DNA of 64,000 nt, taken from the UHGV virus genome UHGV-0209617. One strand, 5' to 3'. The translations under genes were made by a program, and so were the position numbers. This DNA comes from a virus. The notes under the pieces are model-generated. The model was not told where the DNA came from and did not search any database. It saw only the letters and a program-made list of their open reading frames with translations. Shown here one piece after another: positions 15,411 through 40,227 of the stretch. Every line of letters begins with the position of its first letter. The stretch's first letter is position 1.

Positions 15411-17081
15411 ATGGAGTGCATTGAAAGAATATTTTACAGAAAGATTAATCCTTCTGATTTCAAAAAGTTGTATGATATTGACAAACCAGAAGGTGGCGGT
15501 GGTCAGACATACTTGGAAGCCGCTGGTATTTCAAATGAAAAAATCGTTGATTTCCTTTCCTATGCGGAGGTTACAAACAGTCCTTTGCCAGATGAAACAA
15601 GGTCTGTTTATACATTCAATGCCTATGTTTTGGGCGATTCAAAGGGTAAATGTTCGTTTGTAGAATTTGCACCTCGCAAAGGAAGAAATAACTATCGTAT
15701 AAGCCGTCAGAACATGAAATATAAACATCCGGCATGGAGTTTGGATAATGGATTTCCCGAACCATCAAAAGGTGATGATGGCGAATACACATCTGCAGGC
15801 GATTTTGTGGGAATCATTGATAATCTTGTTATTCTTATCATAAGAACTACAAATCGGCGTTATTATGCAGGTTTTGTAAATATAGCGACAATGCCAGAGA
15901 ACTGGCCACACAATATTGGCTTAGAGGGCATTTTTAGTGGTGAACGCAGAGATGTACTAAAAATGGATGCGTATAAACTACAGTTTGTTAATGATGCCTG
16001 TAATCCATTCGGTGATTATGTCCCAACAATCGAAGAATGTAATCGAGCGACTACTGGTTGCAATGTGCTTTTGTACGGAGTTCCCGGAGCAGGAAAGAGT
16101 TGGACAATTGAACACGAATATTGTGCCGATGAAGGGTGTATGGAGCGATTGGTTTTCCATCCGGATTATATGTATTCGGATTTCGTTGGACAAATTTTGC
16201 CTGTAGTAAGGGACGATGACAAGGTTCGTTATGAGTTTACGCCGGGTCCGTTTACCAAATTATTAAAAAAAGCATATTGGAATACAGAACAGTCTTTTTA
16301 CCTTATAATAGAAGAAATAAATCGTGGTAATGCACCAGCGATATTCGGTGAAATATTTCAGCTTTTGGATAGAAAAGATGAAGACGAAATAGATGAAAAT
16401 AGGGAGATTCTCTACAAAAAAGGCACAAGTGAGTATGGAATAACAAATGCCAATATTGCACGAATCGTTTATGGCGATGAAAACCATAAGGTTCGAATTC
16501 CTGCAAATATGTCTATTTTGGGTACAATGAATACTTCTGACCAAAATGTTTTTACATTAGACACAGCATTTCAGAGAAGATGGATTATGAGAATGATTCC
16601 GAATTCATTTGATAACCATAAGTTCGCAGACAAGAAGATTTTGGATACTGATATTTCCTGGAGACAGTTCTGTGAAGCAATTAATGAGGAAATTTTGCGT
16701 AGAAACAACATCACATCTTCTGAGGATAAGCGACTTGGGGCATATTTTATCTCGGCTTCGGATTTGGAGATGAAACCAATCACAGACGGGATGAGCGAAA
16801 AAGAAAAAATCCAAGTGGAGCATAGCAACAGCAGATTTGCAGAAAAAGTATTGAAATATTTATGGGATGATGCTTTCAAATTTTCCCATCAAGATACATT
16901 TAACACAAGACAGTTTGGTAGTCTTGAAAAAGTTATCGAAGGCTTTATGAATCCTGCCAAGCCTAAAAATGAGCGTTTTCGTGTATTCAATGAGAACCTT
17001 CGTAAAATGATTTTGGATGGAGTAACAGCAGAATCAAACGAGGTTTCTGATGATGACAGCGAAGGCTCACAGGAATCTTAA
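15411..17081 (+). CDS. McrB-like GTPase subunit (LlaJI R1-like) with N-terminal DNA-recognition domain
   Basis: Walker A LLYGVPGAGKSW; McrB signature IIEEINRGNAPAIFGEIFQLLDR; TMNTSDQNVFTLDTAFQRRW; starts 4 nt after the second methyltransferase. Confidence 0.85.
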   Translation: MECIERIFYRKINPSDFKKLYDIDKPEGGGGQTYLEAAGISNEKIVDFLSYAEVTNSPLPDETRSVYTFNAYVLGDSKGKCSFVEFAPRKGRNNYRISRQNMKYKHPAWSLDNGFPEPSKGDDGEYTSAGDFVGIIDNLVILIIRTTNRRYYAGFVNIATMPENWPHNIGLEGIFSGERRDVLKMDAYKLQFVNDACNPFGDYVPTIEECNRATTGCNVLLYGVPGAGKSWTIEHEYCADEGCMERLVFHPDYMYSDFVGQILPVVRDDDKVRYEFTPGPFTKLLKKAYWNTEQSFYLIIEEINRGNAPAIFGEIFQLLDRKDEDEIDENREILYKKGTSEYGITNANIARIVYGDENHKVRIPANMSILGTMNTSDQNVFTLDTAFQRRWIMRMIPNSFDNHKFADKKILDTDISWRQFCEAINEEILRRNNITSSEDKRLGAYFISASDLEMKPITDGMSEKEKIQVEHSNSRFAEKVLKYLWDDAFKFSHQDTFNTRQFGSLEKVIEGFMNPAKPKNERFRVFNENLRKMILDGVTAESNEVSDDDSEGSQES

Positions 17082-17097
17082 AGCGAGGTGAGCGACA

Positions 17098-18378
17098 TTG
17101 GATTTAGGCTTAAACTTAAAAGTTAAATGTCATGTGAATAAAAATGGTGATGGCGATAGGTTTGTCGGGATTAAGGCTGATGCTAATCAAGCAATGGTCT
17201 ATTTTCCAATGGGGTATCGCCTGCCAGACAATGAAGAAGATATTAGGGATGATATTCTAAAATTGATTTCTGTATTAGCTGAGTTTACGGATTCAAAAGA
17301 CAAGGTATTGGCTATGCAGAAATTTGAAGCACCACAGTCTGTGAATTTTCCAATCAATGCCTATATGAATATTATCCGATACTATTTGGAACAACGTTCA
17401 TATTACACAGAAAAGGATCCTATTCTAAAGACGAGTGACAGAGGAAAAATCGACTTTGCAGCATCTTTGCGTAGAAATGTTAGCTTTTTTCAAGAAGATG
17501 GAACTCCGTTTTTTGATAAATATACAGTAAAAGGGTCAACTCCTAATGATAAAAATTTAATAACTATGATTCACAAATACTGTGTGCATGAAAGTTTTGC
17601 TCAGATGGGTTGGCTGTTTATGCCGGATGTCCCACAAGATCCACATATTGAACGAAACATTCCGCTTTTCCTCAGTGTACTGAAGAAAAAATTGGCAGTC
17701 ACGCATCTTGAAAAGGATATTCTGCTATTTGAAGCAATGATTTCTATGCTGGAATATTTGGATGAGAAAAGTGACGATAAACAATACTATTTTGGAACAG
17801 ATAGATTTGAATATGTGTGGGAAAAACTGATAGATGCAGTGTTTGGCATAAAAGAAAAGAATGATTATTTTCCACGAACCTCTTGGAAACTAAACTATGG
17901 TGACCAACGAAGAAATTATGCATTAGAGCCGGACACCATAATGCTTTGTAATGGAAAAATCTATGTCATTGATGCAAAGTATTATAGATACGGTGTAACC
18001 GGTACACCTTCGCATTTGCCGGAATCATCATCTATCAACAAGCAGATTACATATGGTGAGTACATATATAATCATAAGAAATTTAAGGATGTATATGGTG
18101 ATGATGTTCCTGTGTATAACGCATTCCTTATGCCGTATAACAAACAGGATAATCCATTTCATATCAATGAGTATTTCGCCAATATTGGTGAGGCTGATAG
18201 TGACTGGAAATATGGCAATCATAATTATGAACGGGTGCAAGGAATTGTAGTTGATATTCGTTTCTTGATGAACAATTACTATGGTTCGCACAAGAGTAAA
18301 ATTATTAAGATGGCGAAGCTCATCGAGGAAGCCCTGCAGGAAAATGCAGATACGCTTCCAGAAGAAAAGACTGAATAA
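17098..18378 (+). CDS. McrC-like PD-(D/E)xK nuclease subunit (LlaJI R2-like)
   Basis: TTG start with GAGGTG 7 nt upstream, 16 nt after the McrB-like gene; IYVIDAKYY matches the McrC-type nuclease motif. Confidence 0.7.
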   Translation: MDLGLNLKVKCHVNKNGDGDRFVGIKADANQAMVYFPMGYRLPDNEEDIRDDILKLISVLAEFTDSKDKVLAMQKFEAPQSVNFPINAYMNIIRYYLEQRSYYTEKDPILKTSDRGKIDFAASLRRNVSFFQEDGTPFFDKYTVKGSTPNDKNLITMIHKYCVHESFAQMGWLFMPDVPQDPHIERNIPLFLSVLKKKLAVTHLEKDILLFEAMISMLEYLDEKSDDKQYYFGTDRFEYVWEKLIDAVFGIKEKNDYFPRTSWKLNYGDQRRNYALEPDTIMLCNGKIYVIDAKYYRYGVTGTPSHLPESSSINKQITYGEYIYNHKKFKDVYGDDVPVYNAFLMPYNKQDNPFHINEYFANIGEADSDWKYGNHNYERVQGIVVDIRFLMNNYYGSHKSKIIKMAKLIEEALQENADTLPEEKTE

Positions 18379-18418
18379 AAAATCCGCAAGCAGTGATTAT
18401 GCTGTTTGCGGATTTTTT
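18377..18418. terminator. Bidirectional intrinsic terminator between convergent genes
   Basis: AAAAAATCCGCAAGCAG..CTGTTTGCGGATTTTTT, about 15 bp stem with one mismatch, A-run and T-run on either side. Confidence 0.6.
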
Positions 18419-19601
18419 ATTTGCCCTTTTGAACTTTGATGCGATGGGAACGTTGATTATTTGCGTTTCTACAGTTACTGCAACAATATTTATTTCTACT
18501 ATTGGATGTCTTTACTAAGAAATATTTATGGCAAGAAGGATTGGCACACTTTCTATATATTTCAGATCCGGGTTTCATGTAGAAAATAGAAAAATATAAT
18601 GCAGAAAGCAATGATGGTGCCTTCCACGACGGTTCCAGTGAATTGGGACTGTAGAAAGGTTTTATACTTCTGGTATTATGATTTATTTCCCCACTTAAAA
18701 CGAGTCGTGCGATAAGAGTAGCAGCCTCTTTTAATGGACTGTTAAATTTGCTGAAATCTGGACTACTATAGTATTCAATGCCGCCCTCGAAAGTTACAGC
18801 TTTTATTACACCAACAGAATGCATATAGTGAAACAGGAATTCAACCATTAGTCGGAGCTTCTTGGATTGAATATTGTTATTCTTGTAAGCAATAGTAACC
18901 TGGCGATACAGCGTATCATTAATTCCAGGATAATCGTATGTAAATGTTTCTCCGTTTGAAATATCATCATATTCATCAGCATTTAATTCATATGAAGGAG
19001 CATAAATCATGTCTTTTACGGTAATAGATTCTGTTTCAGAGGATTGCTGTAGTGAATCGATAGAGGCTTGATTTCTGATGCTATCATGAAATGGATGCCG
19101 ATAGGTTGAATAAGTAATTCGTGCAGTGCCATTAAGCGTAACTTGTGTCCCAAGAAGCAAATACAAAGTTAAATGTAGAATCTGTTCATAATCAAGTGAT
19201 GGTTTTTCCACTGCGGCCATAAGGAGAACTGTAGCCTTTATTCGATTCAAGACTTCTACAAGCGCTACTATATCAATTTCCGTTCCTTCGGGCGAAATAG
19301 GAAGTAGATAACCATGTTCCTCGAAAAAACCAAGGACCTTTTTTACATTGGTTGCCGGAAGCGATATCAGAGAACCGAGAACATTTTTATTTTGAAGTGA
19401 ACCGTGTGGAGTCGTTAAACATAAACCTCGGCTTCCGCTAAAGGCATAATTTATAATTTCATCATTCACGGGATAGACTGTTAATATTTTATGCGCCTGC
19501 CCGTCCGTCTTTAAGACTTCTTCTATTCTAAATGTACATTTTTTGCAACTCAAAGAAAAATAATCGTTGCTAAGATTGAAAAAATTGTCTAACTCAGTCA
19601 T
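18417..19601 (-). CDS. Hypothetical protein with C-terminal CGNR-type zinc finger
   Basis: 394 aa; C-terminus CANPSCHKYFLVKTSNSRNKYCCSNCRNANNQRSHR fits the CGNR zinc-finger pattern; N-terminal 330 aa unrecognised. Confidence 0.5.
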   Translation of the reverse strand: MTELDNFFNLSNDYFSLSCKKCTFRIEEVLKTDGQAHKILTVYPVNDEIINYAFSGSRGLCLTTPHGSLQNKNVLGSLISLPATNVKKVLGFFEEHGYLLPISPEGTEIDIVALVEVLNRIKATVLLMAAVEKPSLDYEQILHLTLYLLLGTQVTLNGTARITYSTYRHPFHDSIRNQASIDSLQQSSETESITVKDMIYAPSYELNADEYDDISNGETFTYDYPGINDTLYRQVTIAYKNNNIQSKKLRLMVEFLFHYMHSVGVIKAVTFEGGIEYYSSPDFSKFNSPLKEAATLIARLVLSGEINHNTRSIKPFYSPNSLEPSWKAPSLLSALYFSIFYMKPGSEIYRKCANPSCHKYFLVKTSNSRNKYCCSNCRNANNQRSHRIKVQKGK

Positions 19602-32279: not shown

Positions 32280-32382
32280 CTGCCAAACTATAGTATAATG
32301 TAAACTGTGAAAAGAATATAATCATAGAGCCATTGGAGAGCAATCTTCGATGGCTTTTCTTATGCCCGAAAGAGGTGAAGCC

Positions 32383-32754
32383 ATGCCAAGGAAACCAAAG
32401 CGTCCCTGCAGATACAGCGGATGCCCGAAGCTGACAGAAGGATACTATTGCGATGAACATCAGAAGCTAATGGACAGGCAGTACGATAAATACCGCCGCC
32501 CGGCTGAAGCCAAGAAAAGGTATGGCTATCAGTGGAGAAAGATAAGAGCTGCGGTACTGGCAAGAGAGCCGTTCTGTCTGGAGTGCCGAAAGGCTGGAAG
32601 AATAACCAAGGCCACAGAGGTGCATCATGCTGTGCCATTAGACCACGGCGGTACCAACGAGGATAGTAATTTGATACCGCTCTGCAAGCCGTGTCACTCC
32701 CGCATAACTGTGGAGATGGGGGATAGATGGCATAAGAAAAAGCTGCCCATATGA
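32383..32754 (+). CDS. HNH endonuclease (packaging-associated)
   Basis: ATG 32383 with AGAGGTGA upstream; HNH core EVHHAVPLDHGGTNEDSNLIPLCKPCHSRI. Confidence 0.7.
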   Translation: MPRKPKRPCRYSGCPKLTEGYYCDEHQKLMDRQYDKYRRPAEAKKRYGYQWRKIRAAVLAREPFCLECRKAGRITKATEVHHAVPLDHGGTNEDSNLIPLCKPCHSRITVEMGDRWHKKKLPI

Positions 32755-32835
32755 GCAGCTTAAAATAAATCGGAATGGCTTCCTGTGCGAGATAGAAAGA
32801 GCATTAAATCATTACCATCAATTCGATAGATGATA

Positions 32836-33117
32836 TTAAGCATCACCTAATACCTCGTTGCGTAATTCCTTGAATGAAGAATAACGTTTATACTTTTCCG
32901 GATTAGCTTTCATTGTATAGTATTCATTCATGGCATCGAGTGTTTCCGGATTAGGTACTGAACGCTTGATGTCGAAGGGAATGCGCTGTTCACGAACAGC
33001 CTGCCGAAGGAATATTGTGACAGCTGTAGTCAAATCCATACCAAGGTCTGAAAAAAGACTTTGTGCATTGAGCTTCAACTGAGGGTCTAATGCTATGTTT
33101 GTACTTACTTTAGCCAT
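32836..33117 (-). CDS. RelB/DinJ family antitoxin-like protein (orphan)
   Basis: ATG at 33117 with TAGGAGGTG upstream; MAKVSTNIALDPQLKLNAQSLFSDLGMDLTTAVTIFLRQAVREQRIPF is the RelB/DinJ ribbon-helix-helix signature; no toxin ORF in the 80 bp downstream. Confidence 0.65.
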   Translation of the reverse strand: MAKVSTNIALDPQLKLNAQSLFSDLGMDLTTAVTIFLRQAVREQRIPFDIKRSVPNPETLDAMNEYYTMKANPEKYKRYSSFKELRNEVLGDA

Positions 33118-33309
33118 ATCTATGCACCTCCTATTAAGGTTAATTGTAGCATAATATGTGCAAAAAGAAAGCATGACATGCGCATGATAAGCATAAAAAT
33201 AACGGGAGGGGGTGTCTGATTCTCTACAGATGTACAAATGTAGACCGGGGGGCTCCCTTCACGCGCAAAAAAGGCGATTTCAAAAGGGTAAAAGAAGGGA
33301 GGAGTTGGA

Positions 33310-33861
33310 TTGCCAACAAAATCCAACAACACCGGCGGCCGTGGAGGTAAAAGACTAGGTGCCGGACGCAAGAAAAAAGCACTGGCAGACAAGCTGGAAA
33401 CAAATAATCCAGGTGGCCGCCCGCTGGTGGTTTTAGACATACCAGAATTTGAAGGAATGGATATGCCACCGCCCAGGGAATTTCTATCCGCCCAGCAGCG
33501 TGATGGAAGTGACCTGCAAGCAAATGAGATATATGAGGAAACATGGGAGTGGCTGAAGAAAATCGGCATGGCAGGAAAGGTAAGCAAGCAGCTTCTTGAA
33601 CGCTATGCAATGTGCGCTGCCCGCTGGGTGCAGTGCGAGGAAATGACCAGCCGAATGGGTATGCTTTCTAAGCACCCTACAACGGGAAAACCTATCCCAA
33701 GTCCATTCATAAACATCGGGATAAACTACATGAATCAGGCTAACAGGCTGTGGGGAGAAATCTTCCAGCTTGTTAAGGAGAACTGCTCGACAGGCTATGA
33801 GGGAGCCAATCCAACAGACGATGTGATGGAGCGGCTGCTCAGAGCAAGGAGCGGAAGGTAA
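33310..33861 (+). CDS. Terminase small subunit (P27-like)
   Basis: TTG start after GGGAGGAG; Gly/Arg/Lys-rich N-terminus GGRGGKRLGAGRKKK; precedes the packaging region. Confidence 0.55.
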   Translation: MPTKSNNTGGRGGKRLGAGRKKKALADKLETNNPGGRPLVVLDIPEFEGMDMPPPREFLSAQQRDGSDLQANEIYEETWEWLKKIGMAGKVSKQLLERYAMCAARWVQCEEMTSRMGMLSKHPTTGKPIPSPFINIGINYMNQANRLWGEIFQLVKENCSTGYEGANPTDDVMERLLRARSGR

Positions 33862-33906
33862 TATGCTAGTGCAGAATTGTACTGGCTATTTTTTATGGAG
33901 GCAGCA

Positions 33907-35184
33907 ATGGCGAATACAGAACGATTTGAAAAAGTACATATAGACAAGCTGGTGCCCTATGCCAGAAATGCCAGGACACACAGCAAGGAGCAGGTCATGG
34001 AACTGAGAGCGTCCTTAAGGGAGTTCGGATTCGTTACTCCCGTCCTGGTAGATGAAAACTATACAATCCTCGCGGGGCACGGACGTGTCAGGGCTGCAAA
34101 GGAAGAAGGCATTACCGAGGTGCCATGTGTATTTGCGAACCAGCTGACGGATGCACAGAAGAAAGCCTATATCCTAGCAGATAACCGTCTTGCGCTTAAT
34201 GCGGGATGGGATAACGAGATGCTGGCAGTTGAACTGGCTGATCTGCAGGGCGAGGCTTTTGATATCGGCCTTTTGGGATTTGATGACAAGGAGCTGGAGA
34301 AGCTCCTTGGCAATAACGATGAGGCAGAGGATGATGATTTCGATGTTGATGCCGAACTTCAAAAACCATGCTTCAGCCGCCCAGGAGATATCTGGAAACT
34401 CGGCAGGCACAAGGTTATCTGTGGTGACAGCACTGACCCGAATGTTTACACTTCTCTTCTTGGAGATGTGAAAGTAAACCTAGTCTGCACTGACCCGCCG
34501 TATTTTGTAGCCTTCGAGAATAAATCAGGGAAAATCCAGAATGACAATCTGGGTGATGAGGAAGGATATAAATTCCTCAAATCCGCTATGGATAATTTCC
34601 ATAATGCTATGGCAAAGGATGCCAGCATTTATGTGTTTTATGCTACATCCAAAGCCAGGGTATTCCATGATGCTTTTGAGGATGCAGGGTTTAAGGTTGG
34701 AGCAGGACTTGTCTGGAAGAAGGATCGCCTGGTGCTGACCCGCACGGATTGGAAGTACATCCATGAGCCAATTATCTTCGGCTGGCGTAAGGACGGAAAG
34801 CATATCTGGTACGGAGATCAGAAGCAGACTACTGTATTTGAGTTTTCCCGTATCAAGGATTCTGGCAAGGATGGATACGGTCATCCTACCAGCAAGCCTG
34901 TACCTCTCATTGCTTATCTCATTAAGCAGTGCACCCAGACTAACGGTATTGTGCTGGATGGCTTCTTGGGTTCTGCCAGCACCCTTATTGCCTGTGAGCA
35001 GCTTGAAAGAAACTGTTATGGCGTAGAGCTTGAGCCGAAGTTCGTGGATGTGGCTGTAAACAGATACATCGCAGCCCATGATGGCTCCGCCCAGGATGTT
35101 GTCCTTATCCGAGATGGAAAAGAATACAGCTACGAAGAGTCCCAAGCGATGATGGAGGATAGTGCTGAAAATGACGAACAATAA
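33907..35184 (+). CDS. ParB-like nuclease domain fused to DNA methyltransferase (beta class, N4/N6)
   Basis: ATG 33907 with GGAGG upstream; ParB-like N-terminus ILAGHGRVRAAKEEG; methyltransferase motifs CTDPPY and GHPTSKP. Confidence 0.8.
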   Translation: MANTERFEKVHIDKLVPYARNARTHSKEQVMELRASLREFGFVTPVLVDENYTILAGHGRVRAAKEEGITEVPCVFANQLTDAQKKAYILADNRLALNAGWDNEMLAVELADLQGEAFDIGLLGFDDKELEKLLGNNDEAEDDDFDVDAELQKPCFSRPGDIWKLGRHKVICGDSTDPNVYTSLLGDVKVNLVCTDPPYFVAFENKSGKIQNDNLGDEEGYKFLKSAMDNFHNAMAKDASIYVFYATSKARVFHDAFEDAGFKVGAGLVWKKDRLVLTRTDWKYIHEPIIFGWRKDGKHIWYGDQKQTTVFEFSRIKDSGKDGYGHPTSKPVPLIAYLIKQCTQTNGIVLDGFLGSASTLIACEQLERNCYGVELEPKFVDVAVNRYIAAHDGSAQDVVLIRDGKEYSYEESQAMMEDSAENDEQ

Positions 35185-36632: not shown

Positions 36633-36661
36633 TTGATAATAATACAGATGTACGGTAATAT
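36633..36661 (+). promoter_or_regulatory. Consensus-like sigma-A promoter, copy 1 of a duplicated ~48 bp element
   Basis: -35 TTGATA, 17 nt spacer, -10 TAATAT, then ACACACAAC(A/G)AAAGGG; near-identical copy at 38201-38229. Confidence 0.5.
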
Positions 36662-36710
36662 ACACACAACAAAAGGGAACACCCCACCAAGAGAAAGCGA
36701 GGAAAACAAA

Positions 36711-37598
36711 ATGGATTTAAGAGCACAGACCTTCGGAGTAGAGATTGAGATGACCGGCCTTACAAGAAACAGGGCCGCAAAGGTAATCGCCGCATACTTC
36801 GGAACGGAGGCAACCTACTTCGGAGGCGGATACGATGAGCACCACGCAAAGGACAGCAAGGGCAGAATCTGGAAGGCCATGAGCGATTCAAGCATCAGGG
36901 CAGAAAAGAAGGACGGCTCCTACGCAAGCGACCTTTACAAGACCGAGGTGGTAACCCCAATCCTCAGATACGAGGACATTGAAGACCTACAGGAAATCCT
37001 GAGAAAGCTCAGAAAGGCAGGGGCGATGGTAAACAGCAGCACAGGGATTCACATCCACATCGGAGCGGAGAATTTCACCCCGGCTACCCTTTGCAACCTT
37101 CTGAAGAACATCCGAAGCAAGGAGGACATTCTTTACAGAGCCATTCAGGTCAAGGAAAACCGCGCAAGGTACTGCAGAAAAACAAACCAGAAGCTCATCG
37201 AGATGATTGAGGCACACCGCCCCAAGACAAAGGAGCAGCTTGCAGACCTTTGGTATGCAGAAGCACCATACGGAAGAAACAGGCATTACAACGACAGCAG
37301 ATACCACGGACTTAACCTCCACGCATACTTCACTAAGGGAACGGTCGAGTTCAGGCTTTTCAACAGCACCCTCCACGCAGGCGAATTGAAAGCCTACATA
37401 CAGTTCTGCATGGCGGTTACAGCAAAGGCCATAAACACCAAGAAGGCAAGCGCGAAGCCAAGCATCAGCGACAACGAAAAATACACTTTCAGATGCTGGC
37501 TCCTCCGCCTGGGCCTTAACGGAGAAGAATTCAAGACCTGCAGAACCCACCTTTTGAAGCACCTCGAAGGAAACAGCGCCTGGAGGCACCTTTCCTAA
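36711..37598 (+). CDS. Amidoligase (Amidoligase_2 / glutamine synthetase-like)
   Basis: 295 aa from ATG 36711; motifs FGVEIEMTG, GIHIHIG, VEFRLFNSTLH. Confidence 0.6.
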   Translation: MDLRAQTFGVEIEMTGLTRNRAAKVIAAYFGTEATYFGGGYDEHHAKDSKGRIWKAMSDSSIRAEKKDGSYASDLYKTEVVTPILRYEDIEDLQEILRKLRKAGAMVNSSTGIHIHIGAENFTPATLCNLLKNIRSKEDILYRAIQVKENRARYCRKTNQKLIEMIEAHRPKTKEQLADLWYAEAPYGRNRHYNDSRYHGLNLHAYFTKGTVEFRLFNSTLHAGELKAYIQFCMAVTAKAINTKKASAKPSISDNEKYTFRCWLLRLGLNGEEFKTCRTHLLKHLEGNSAWRHLS

Positions 37599-37610
37599 AA
37601 CAAACCGGCC

Positions 37611-37643
37611 TACCAGCCCCGAAAGGGGCCTTTCGGTGGTAGA
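37611..37643 (+). other. GC-rich hairpin element after amidoligase gene
   Basis: CTACCAGCCCCGAAAGGGGCCTTTCGGTGGTAG; related element at 38467-38506; no U-tract. Confidence 0.35.
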
Positions 37644-37695
37644 AGCACCTAGCTTCTGAATAAACCGATTTGCTTTAGGAAGGGAGTCTTCAACA

Positions 37696-38154
37696 ATGAA
37701 AAGAAAAATCTATCTGGCCTACGGAAGCAACATGAGCCTTTTGCAGATGTACCACCGTTGCCCTGATGCAGAACCGATTGGCAAGGGCATCATCAAGGAT
37801 TACCGCCTGATGTTTAAGGGAAGTAAGAGTGGCAACTATGCGACCATCGAATACGAGGAAGGACGGCAGGTGCCTGTGGTAGCCTGGGCAATCAGTGAAA
37901 GGGATGAAAAATGCCTTGACCGCTATGAAGGATTTCCGAGCTTTTATGTGAAGGACACCATCGCATTTGAATATATCGGTGATCGCCCAGGAAGAAGGAT
38001 GAAGGATGAGGGCATGGTTTATGTGATGCCGCCAGATGAGACTGTTCTGGGGCTTCCAAGTGGTCACTACATGGATGTCCTTCTTGAAGGCTACCATCGC
38101 TTCGGATTTAATTCCAGAATCCTTTGGGAAGCCTACGAATACAGCGATGAGTGA
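37696..38154 (+). CDS. Gamma-glutamyl cyclotransferase-like protein (GGCT/AIG2 fold)
   Basis: N-terminal IYLAYGSNMSLLQM (YGSNM signature); 152 aa; directly follows the amidoligase. Confidence 0.6.
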   Translation: MKRKIYLAYGSNMSLLQMYHRCPDAEPIGKGIIKDYRLMFKGSKSGNYATIEYEEGRQVPVVAWAISERDEKCLDRYEGFPSFYVKDTIAFEYIGDRPGRRMKDEGMVYVMPPDETVLGLPSGHYMDVLLEGYHRFGFNSRILWEAYEYSDE

Positions 38155-38506: not shown

Positions 38507-38578
38507 CATAAATAGACTTTACAAGTTCCCAACTACACCATGTTAAAGTATCGGCTCCGATGGGAGCTTCATATCTAA

Positions 38579-38600
38579 CCGCCTCTGGGCGGATTTTTTT
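38579..38600 (+). terminator. Short hairpin plus T-run just upstream of terminase large subunit
   Basis: CCGCC TCTG GGCGG followed by ATTTTTTT. Confidence 0.4.
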
Positions 38601-38619
38601 ATGTCTGGAAGTGAGAGAA

Positions 38620-40227
38620 ATGGCAATAAGGAAACTGAAAAAATACATACCGACAAAATTCATGTCTGAAGACAGCCATTATGATAAGGGGGCGGCTGAC
38701 TATGCCGTAGCATTTATTGAAGCCTTATGCCATACCAAGGGAACTTGGGCAGGTAAGCCTTTTGAGCTAATCGATTGGCAGGAACAGATTATTCGTGACC
38801 TTTTTGGTATCCTAAAGCCAAATGGATATAGGCAGTTTAATACAGCCTATGTTGAAATACCCAAAAAGCAAGGAAAATCTGAGCTGGCAGCGGCCGTTGC
38901 AATCCTTTTAACCTGCGGTGATGGTGAGGAACGTGCGGAGGTTTATGGCTGTGCTGCAGACCGGCAACAGGCATCCATTGTTTTTGATGTTGCTGCGGAT
39001 ATGGTCAGTATGTGTCCTGCTTTAGCCAAGCGCGTAAAAATACAGAAATCTATGAAGCGCATGATATATCTTCCTACGAACAGCTTCTACCAGGTGCTTT
39101 CGGCAGAGGCCTATTCAAAGCATGGCTTCAATATCCATGGTGTTATCTTTGATGAGCTTCATACCCAGCCAGACCGCAAGCTGTATGATGTAATGACCAA
39201 AGGCTCCGGCGATGCAAGAATGCAGCCGATGTATTTTAATATAACTACAGCAGGGACGGATACTCATTCCATATGCTACGAAATACATCAGAAGGCAAAG
39301 GATATTATTGCTGGGCGGAAGATTGATACAACCTTCTATCCTGTGATTTATGGTGCGGATGAAGGAGAGGATTGGACTTCTCCAGAAGTGTGGAAGAAGG
39401 CAAATCCGTCTCTTGGCATTACTGTTGGCATGGATAAGGTTGAAGTTGCTTGTGAGTCTGCAAGGCAGAATCCAGGGGAAGAAAATGCTTTTCGCCAACT
39501 TCGTCTTAACCAATGGGTAAAGCAGTCGGTTCGTTGGATGCCTATGGAAAAATGGGATGAGTGCAGCTTCAAAGTTAACCCTGATGACCTAGAAGGACGC
39601 GTATGCTATGGAGGTCTTGACCTATCCAGCACCACAGATATAACAGCCTTTGTATTGGTGTTTCCTCCGGAGGATGAGGAGGATAAATATCATATACTGC
39701 CTTATTTCTGGATACCGGAGGAAACAATGGATCTTCGTGTAAAGCGTGACCATGTGCCCTATGATATCTGGCATAAGCAGGGATTCCTTGAAACCACCGA
39801 AGGCAATGTAGTCCACTATGGCTACATCGAGAAATTCATTGAATCCCTCGGTGAAAAATATAATATCCGTGAGATTGCCTTTGATAGATGGGGTGCGACA
39901 CAGATGGTGCAGAATCTTGAGGGCATGGGATTTACTGTTGTTCCCTTTGGACAAGGTTACAAGGATATGAGTCCGCCAACCAAGGAGCTGATGAAGCTGA
40001 CCCTTGAAAAGAAACTGGCTCATGGCGGTCATCCAGTTCTGAGGTGGATGGCAGACAATATCTTCATCCGAAGGGATCCCGCTGGGAACATCAAGGCAGA
40101 CAAAGAAAAGTCCACAGAGAAGATTGACGGTGTCATAGCCACCATAATGGGGCTGGACAGAGCAATTCGCTGTGGATTGAATTCTGGAGATTCCGTTTAT
40201 GATGGGCGAGGAATTTTGTTAATATAA
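38620..40227 (+). CDS. Phage terminase large subunit
   Basis: 535 aa from ATG 38620; ATPase region AYVEIPKKQGKSELAAA and VIFDELH (Walker B-like); C-terminal nuclease half. Confidence 0.9.
   Translation: MAIRKLKKYIPTKFMSEDSHYDKGAADYAVAFIEALCHTKGTWAGKPFELIDWQEQIIRDLFGILKPNGYRQFNTAYVEIPKKQGKSELAAAVAILLTCGDGEERAEVYGCAADRQQASIVFDVAADMVSMCPALAKRVKIQKSMKRMIYLPTNSFYQVLSAEAYSKHGFNIHGVIFDELHTQPDRKLYDVMTKGSGDARMQPMYFNITTAGTDTHSICYEIHQKAKDIIAGRKIDTTFYPVIYGADEGEDWTSPEVWKKANPSLGITVGMDKVEVACESARQNPGEENAFRQLRLNQWVKQSVRWMPMEKWDECSFKVNPDDLEGRVCYGGLDLSSTTDITAFVLVFPPEDEEDKYHILPYFWIPEETMDLRVKRDHVPYDIWHKQGFLETTEGNVVHYGYIEKFIESLGEKYNIREIAFDRWGATQMVQNLEGMGFTVVPFGQGYKDMSPPTKELMKLTLEKKLAHGGHPVLRWMADNIFIRRDPAGNIKADKEKSTEKIDGVIATIMGLDRAIRCGLNSGDSVYDGRGILLI

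Follow-up and report, generated by a model that had tools for sequence, protein, structure and literature searches.

Introduction

The closest described counterparts of the locus analysed here are the DinJ-YafQ toxin-antitoxin (TA) modules of Escherichia coli (4Q2U, 4ML0) and Vibrio cholerae (9LEW), with which it shares the antitoxin family (TIGR02384, PF04221). RelB/DinJ homologues are also carried by temperate Firmicute phages as part of DinJ-YafQ or RelB-RelE pairs, as in Streptococcus phage Javan639, where the pair sits among accessory genes between those for a methyltransferase and a SAM synthetase, and in Monoglobales phage CHVD 5762 (Ca. Heliusvirales). In the deposited phages with DinJ homologues the adjacent YafQ or RelE toxin is intact, and these homologues are 36-48% identical to the protein described below.

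Antitoxin-like proteins without a partner toxin have been described too. Dmd of phage T4 acts against RnlA and LsoA. The phage orphan antitoxin-like enzyme AdfN has been shown experimentally to counter DarTG1, and the experimental evidence for anti-addiction is limited (PMC11825919). In Klebsiella, degrading TA pairs are one source of orphan antitoxins, for which anti-addiction and regulatory roles have been discussed (PMC7192599).

The stretch of DNA analysed here (the window, 64,000 nucleotides of the virus genome UHGV-0209617) carries a RelB/DinJ-type gene that a reading made from the sequence alone had taken for an orphan. We conclude that this gene is almost certainly the surviving antitoxin of a RelB/DinJ-YafQ type II cassette whose toxin gene has undergone an internal deletion. 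The locus represents a known TA family in a decayed state, not a new kind of system, and the decay took an ordinary form. As in DinJ-YafQ, the partner toxin of its relatives belongs to Pfam YafQ_toxin, the antitoxin gene comes first and the two genes overlap; the direct sequence match between DinJ chains and the window antitoxin is weak (E 0.002), with low identity to E. coli DinJ. Unlike a working DinJ-YafQ pair, the window cassette lacks toxin codons 5-67 and is phage-borne, not chromosomal. Like the anti-addiction orphans proposed to neutralise an incoming toxin (PMC7192599, PMC11825919), the antitoxin remains in its original context after toxin loss, whereas, in contrast to the chromosomal orphans of Klebsiella, it resides on a phage, its deletion is mapped to the base and intact sibling cassettes have been identified in other samples. 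It also resembles AdfN and Dmd in being a phage protein, related to or acting like an antitoxin, that has no partner toxin; those two are proteins of lytic phages for which experiments have demonstrated the disarming of host TA defence, whereas the window gene is a lysogen-style accessory gene from the phage's own cassette, known by its sequence.

Results

The antitoxin gene is intact and conserved

The antitoxin gene occupies positions 32836..33117 on the minus strand and is intact, with 93 codons and a TAA stop (32836-32838), its ATG lying at 33115-33117. The sequence-only reading had identified it as a RelB/DinJ antitoxin encoded on the opposite strand inside the packaging region, and both family and setting proved right. 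The ORF is exact at these coordinates, and residues 1-88 of its protein match positions 1-84/85 of the NCBIfam profile TIGR02384 RelB_DinJ with 62.3 bits (E 3.7e-17; cut-off 45.65 bits), while Pfam PF04221 RelB gives 32.8 bits, above its cut-off of 22.4 bits. The protein is identical to NCBI DAM45451.1, 'addiction module antitoxin [Caudoviricetes sp.]'. The gene is flanked by two phage backbone genes, a convergent HNH endonuclease gene (32350..32754, plus strand; PF01844, E 2.2e-12) and the divergent small terminase gene terS (33310..33861, plus strand; PF05119 Terminase_4); the large terminase gene lies at 38560-40227. The strong ribosome-binding site reported earlier was likewise borne out: a Shine-Dalgarno sequence, GGAGGTG (33125..33131, minus strand), stands 7 nt before the ATG and is identical in three related cassettes (L002, L104 and L102).

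An AlphaFold model of the monomer (mean pLDDT 72) places helices at residues 12-24 and 29-44, which would form the ribbon-helix-helix part, and at 57-71 and 82-91, which would form the C-terminal part, behind an unstructured N-terminus. The ribbon-helix-helix strand arises only in the dimer and is absent from the monomer model. The top PDB match found by Foldseek, a weak one, was V. cholerae DinJ as seen in its complex with YafQ (9lew; prob 0.93, E 0.028); a further weak match was the RelB DNA-binding domain 2k29 (E 3). Model and matches agree, weakly, with a DNA-binding ribbon-helix-helix domain and a toxin-binding extension C-terminal to it. All residues invariant in a 47-sequence family alignment are kept, including P55, N56, A62, E65, P73, Y76, Y79 and F82 of the C-terminal half, and dN/dS between the window antitoxin and its relatives from intact cassettes is 0.05-0.08. 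Among the 15 close variants listed, differences fall almost entirely at residues 49-87, presumed to be the toxin-binding part, and residues 1-48 are near-invariant, with rare singletons only (e.g. P0127, P0128, P0133).

A YafQ remnant with a 189-bp internal deletion follows the antitoxin

The orphan status proposed earlier rested on there being no toxin gene downstream. This holds in that no intact toxin gene is present, but the 81 bp that separate the stop codons of the antitoxin and HNH genes hold the remnant of a YafQ-family toxin gene (32760..32843, minus strand), recognised by its translation, by a toxin profile, by Pfam and by alignment to the closely related cassette L002. The remnant comprises 27 codons and a stop, MLNI followed by IYRIDGNDLMLFLSRTGSHSDLF, and its translation, MLNIIYRIDGNDLMLFLSRTGSHSDLF, corresponds to toxin codons 1-4 and 68-90, that is, the first 4 and the last 23. 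Its ATG (32841-32843) overlaps the antitoxin stop in the 8-nt ATGCTTAA (32836-32843), and the intact pairs of relatives have the same overlap. In a search of all six-frame ORFs of the window with a profile built from 35 full-length toxins of the window-cassette family, the remnant matched positions 67-90/91 (E 2.8e-10), and Pfam YafQ_toxin matched it at positions 66-87/88 (E 3e-4). The 35-toxin profile detected no second YafQ-like toxin in any frame of the 64-kb window.

Comparison with close relatives settles the origin of this segment, as the 81 bp do align to their toxin gene. Alignment of the window with L002, its closest relative, shows a single clean in-frame gap of 189 bp, or 63 codons, and pairwise and multiple DNA alignments with L002, L104, L102 and L103 place the junction, at which toxin codons 5-67 are missing, between 32831..32832 (minus strand). 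No microhomology is evident at the junction in these alignments, and both flanking ATC codons are retained. Among the lost codons are those aligned with the central catalytic region of E. coli YafQ (...YRDH...FRECHIQPDW...), and the lost region holds most of the RNase active site. The remnant cannot form the toxin fold or work as a toxin. A functional type II module requires an intact toxin gene immediately 3' of the antitoxin and transcribed together with it; in the window this is absent, with 27 of 90 codons remaining, and in relatives L002-L008 and L100-L104 it is present. The short downstream toxin gene that had been named as evidence against an orphan therefore exists formally, as a short ORF, but it is a remnant without the catalytic core. 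The implied picture of a stand-alone phage antitoxin, by contrast, has to be replaced: the locus is a RelB-YafQ cassette minus toxin codons 5-67, and sibling phages have both genes intact at this position.

The cassette is a self-contained unit of temperate phages

Intact pairs of RelB (93 aa) and YafQ (90 aa, PF15738) lie between terS and the HNH gene, on the opposite strand, in L002, L003-L008 and L104, and their antitoxins are 95% (L002) and 72% (L003-L008) identical to that of the window. The L002 toxin (6275-6547) scores 118 bits against Pfam YafQ_toxin. The HNH neighbour is common to L002-L016 and L104, and the terS neighbour is also found in related loci. In a cassette-less relative, PV036426 (Ca. 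Heliusvirales), the HNH and terS genes are separated by only ~140 bp, indicating that the cassette is an insertion; the sequence just 5' of terS is common to PV036426 and the window. A further copy, in L102 (2727-3273) and L103, adjoins a 1661-aa ORF rather than HNH or terS, with an antitoxin ~92% identical to that of the window and a canonical toxin motif. Homology to these copies starts ~150 nt 5' of the antitoxin ATG and stops sharply just past a terminator hairpin. The presence of the cassette in this unrelated context argues for a discrete mobile unit, and the sharp end of homology after the hairpin suggests that it moves as a unit of ~0.7-0.8 kb. The cassette is best explained as self-contained, with its own promoter, antitoxin, overlapping toxin and terminator, and as an accessory unit of a family of gut Firmicute temperate phages.

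The last codons and the stop of the HNH gene (window 32729-32761) fall inside the terminator hairpin of the TA cassette, which is also found in the non-phage cassette copy. The HNH C-terminus in the window-related phages appears to be partly cassette-derived.

Expression signals are retained, with an operator-like motif

A promoter-/operator-like region is predicted at 33143..33185 (minus strand) from a consensus scan and an alignment of family promoters. The scan identified a good extended -10, TGCTACAAT (33143-33151), without a convincing -35, for which most relatives have TTGACA, as well as an alternative promoter, ATGTCA-17-TATTAT (33151-33179), both on the minus strand. On the same strand, the antitoxin's own promoter region contains a single perfect copy of the 8-bp palindrome ATGCGCAT (33178-33185). 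Across 35 non-redundant family promoters, ATGCGCAT-like 8-mers were found 24 times, versus 0.28 in shuffles, an approximately 80-fold over-representation; judged on sequence, such sites are likely to be the operator of this antitoxin family. No long palindromic operator (arms of at least 6) is present in the window promoter, which has only the 8-bp ATGCGCAT and half-site-like repeats. At its other end, the cassette ends in a terminator-like hairpin (32740..32761), which on the minus strand reads AAGCTGCTCATATGGGCAGCTT and then a T-run, with the HNH stop (32752-32754) in its loop; this hairpin is intact in the window and conserved in the non-phage cassette copies L102 and L103. An Rfam scan of 32300-33900 gave only sub-threshold chance matches (OmrA-B, 25 bits versus 40; Qrr), hence no RNA antitoxin or known RNA.

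The antitoxin gene and terS share a 192-bp intergenic region, which raises the question of whether the protein has been domesticated as a transcription factor, that is, a ribbon-helix-helix protein kept as a repressor of other phage or host genes, such as the terS late operon. The near-invariance of the N-terminal 48 residues among the 15 listed close variants would fit such a role, and the acquisition of regulatory roles by orphan antitoxins has been proposed (PMC7192599). We nevertheless consider it very unlikely: the rest of the 64-kb window shows no enrichment of ATGCRCAT sites (9 found versus 6.8 expected), giving no sign of a wider regulon, and the sole perfect site lies in the antitoxin's own promoter region. 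Moreover, the conservation of the sequence 5' of terS in the cassette-less phage indicates that terS control is independent of the cassette.

Two further elements were noted between the antitoxin promoter and terS. The first is a nested hairpin at 33203-33262 (plus strand), with an outer stem of the GGGAGGGGG...CCCCCUCCC type around TCTACA-N10-TGTAGA, which is 100% identical between the window and L002 and whose folding energy is not significant (z -1.7). A similar nested stem, made of different bases, lies 5' of the cassette in the non-phage context of L102. This hairpin may be a candidate cassette boundary, an insulator/terminator or a packaging-site element. The second is a perfect 8-nt inverted repeat, CTCCCTTC (33253-33260) and GAAGGGAG (33294-33301), through which the terS ribosome-binding site (AAGAAGGGAGG) could base-pair with sequence further upstream, making translational control of terS possible.

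The deletion allele belongs to a recent and widespread phage clone

At least 24 indexed contigs, from many human gut metagenome samples, encode precisely this antitoxin protein. A 119-kb scaffold, ERZ28638444 scaffold_39, is 100% identical to the window across the 12.3 kb compared. Among independent metagenome contigs chosen by exact antitoxin protein identity and fetched, 10 of 10 carry an identical 60-nt junction and are 99.7-100% identical to the window, compared over 5 to 12.3 kb. That the 189-bp gap is a mis-assembly or sequencing error over a toxin gene that is really intact can be dismissed for practical purposes, as 10 contigs that come from different samples and assemblers (ENA and Logan assemblies, one of the samples being Hadza) share the same junction. 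In IMG/VR, exact matching of the junction gave no hit, and a 20-mer junction match in a JGI metagenome (L099) was rejected as a chance match, the contig containing no antitoxin.

The near-identity of the carriers points to one recent, widespread phage clone. Since the deletion is recent, the intact antitoxin of the window phage is uninformative on selection after toxin loss. These observations bear on the possibility that the antitoxin is a neutral relic, its toxin having been lost recently and the antitoxin itself not having decayed yet, perhaps expressed and invisible to selection. Carriers and window differ by no more than 0.3% over 5-12 kb, a divergence that leaves no time for decay; on the other side, the toxin-less phage clone is widespread. 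We regard a neutral relic as a real possibility that we nonetheless doubt, for reasons that also come from the wider family.

Toxin loss recurs across the antitoxin family

Our survey covered 80 species-level genome loci with a homologous antitoxin. An adjacent intact YafQ was found at ~32 of the 80 loci, and the remainder showed toxin defects of many independent kinds, including nonsense mutations (L077, L087), a frameshift (L054), internal deletions (L024, L093), truncations (L097, L098) and absence of the toxin (L036, L096). At least 10 independent toxin defects were counted across the genome loci, whereas the antitoxin was disrupted in L090 only, where the toxin is disrupted too. Because the loci were found via the antitoxin, this asymmetry is partly a matter of ascertainment. 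The decay of a TA pair can viably start only with the loss of its toxin. The far more frequent damage to toxin genes than to antitoxin genes in this family is consistent with a neutral relic, being expected if the toxin goes first, whatever the later use of the antitoxin, and the K. pneumoniae survey likewise traces some orphan antitoxins to TA pairs undergoing degradation (PMC7192599).

A parallel case is provided by a chromosomal homologue of the cassette in Atopobium/Lancefieldella (e.g. L047, L. parvula DNF00906, 3001-3330; ~35 other loci, L037-L089), whose antitoxin is 68% identical to that of the window and represents a different, chromosomal lineage. Two independent toxin deletions, internal or terminal and each with its own fixed junction, are found there: type A, in 29 genomes, keeps ~4 N-terminal and 11 C-terminal codons, and type B, in 7 genomes, keeps 17-18 N-terminal codons; in 7 genomes the pair is intact. 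The orphan antitoxins are intact in 36 of 36 loci, with pairwise dN/dS of 0.05 and 0.04, compared with 0.06 for the intact loci. Among their variable codons, 24 are synonymous-only versus 9 amino-acid-changing (binomial p 2e-10 versus neutrality), and diversity is 0.049 at third and 0.005 at first plus second codon positions, against 0.029 in what is left of the dead toxin. This purifying selection shows that orphan antitoxins of the RelB-YafQ family can persist under selection long after toxin loss; what is being selected may be some activity besides the neutralisation of toxin, such as regulation. It also speaks against a neutral relic, since in Atopobium/Lancefieldella time has elapsed since the loss and all 36 orphans are nevertheless intact, at dN/dS 0.04-0.05.

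One further locus differs in its downstream gene. On a [Ruminococcus] torques contig (L095, 1824-2364), an antitoxin homologue of 97 aa, 68% identical, is followed by an ORF that is not YafQ and that resembles, by eye only, a HicB-type antitoxin (MNTLEEYMKLPYPIEITPDKDEGGYVASHPDLKGC...). This may represent partner swapping or a neighbouring TA locus.

Sibling toxin alleles are potential targets of the surviving antitoxin

Toxins 93-97% identical to that of L002 are found on many contigs of public assemblies. The sibling toxins P0135-P0141 and P0255-P0272, which share at least 93% mutual identity, are polymorphic at two C-terminal positions, R/C/H at one and H/Y at the other, that align to R83 and H87 of E. 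coli YafQ; in the relatives' toxins the C-terminal RTG[ST]H..LF aligns to R83/H87/F91, the catalytic residues of E. coli YafQ. Some sibling toxins carry the canonical C-terminal motif SRTGSH (e.g. P0136, P0138-P0141, P0261-P0266), and the commonest alleles carry SRTGSY, SCTGSY or SHTGSY (P0255 on 23 contigs, P0256 on 13 and P0269 on 13). Tyrosine at the second polymorphic position resembles the RelE active site. These non-canonical alleles may encode attenuated toxins or have a RelE-like Tyr active site; a reading of the L002-type SCTGSY as inactivating was judged too strong in view of this similarity to RelE. At the two polymorphic positions the window remnant keeps R and H, indicating that the deletion arose on a canonical background, independently of those substitutions. 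The canonical toxin P0140 lies on contig L102, where its partner antitoxin is 92% identical to that of the window. Since close toxin alleles, some of them canonical, circulate in public assemblies, potential targets in trans exist.

As a whole, the best explanation, which we hold to be probable, is that of a toxin-deleted cassette whose antitoxin is still expressed, autoregulated and able to neutralise a cognate YafQ in trans. An intact RelB-YafQ cassette underwent the 189-bp in-frame deletion of toxin codons 5-67, leaving the antitoxin and the 27-codon remnant. In the lysogen, the antitoxin would still be made from its own promoter and, by way of the N-terminal ribbon-helix-helix domain, would keep that promoter repressed at ATGCGCAT-like sites. 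The unchanged C-terminal half would continue to wrap around and neutralise same-subfamily YafQ toxins provided in trans, for example from sibling phages or further elements with an intact cassette, and the lysogen or phage would gain immunity to addiction or abortive killing. That this trans-neutralisation is a selected present-day role, not a leftover capacity, is close to an even call in our judgement, leaning slightly against. We think it rather unlikely that the toxin-less cassette is a selected 'immunity-only' allele against the YafQ of sibling phages and elements, which lets its carrier evade addiction, exclusion or abortive killing by them and spares it the cost of a toxin of its own; if it were, the recurrent toxin deletions, the selection on Atopobium antitoxins and the polymorphism of the toxin active site would all be outcomes of one conflict.

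A different target is conceivable, the antitoxin being kept to disarm a chromosomal RelE/YafQ abortive-infection system of the host during infection. AdfN against DarTG1 is a precedent for phage orphan antitoxin-like proteins (PMC11825919), and YafQ/RelB cassettes of the same subfamily often occur in the chromosomes of gut Firmicutes and Atopobium. Nonetheless, the opposite-strand position and the gene's own housekeeping-type promoter and terminator suggest an accessory gene expressed in the lysogen, not one of the early lytic genes, and the antitoxin's parent cassette came with a toxin. Since the specificity of type II antitoxins rarely extends beyond toxins closely akin to their own partner, sibling cassettes are a more plausible target than an arbitrary host system. 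We therefore consider counter-defence unlikely, and favour the toxin-deleted cassette with an antitoxin that would act on YafQ toxins of its own subfamily.

The locus provides a base-resolved case of the decay of a phage-borne type II TA cassette, in which an internal deletion first removes the toxin and leaves the antitoxin, with all its expression signals, in place. If the antitoxin protects against sibling cassettes, it would be a natural case of the long-proposed and thinly documented anti-addiction role, among competing gut temperate phages, and the target toxin alleles would already be identified in public metagenome assemblies.

Other features of the window

Outside the phage-like block, the window carries an AAA_5 (McrB-like) ATPase gene followed by a LlaJI-type restriction endonuclease gene (15411-18378), which are probably a host restriction system. 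A 394-aa ORF at 18417-19601 (minus strand) was considered as an integrase and rejected, having no integrase domain by Pfam. Between terS and the large terminase gene, an Amidoligase_2 gene (236 bits) is followed by a GGACT/AIG2-like gamma-glutamyl cyclotransferase gene (36633-38154); DUF4314 and DUF5049 genes share this accessory block of the packaging module, which is conserved in L002 and L009-L012. Directly 3' of terS in all related loci, and in the window at 33877-35184, domain matches identify a gene in which a ParB N-terminal domain (ParB_N) is fused to an N6/N4 DNA methyltransferase.
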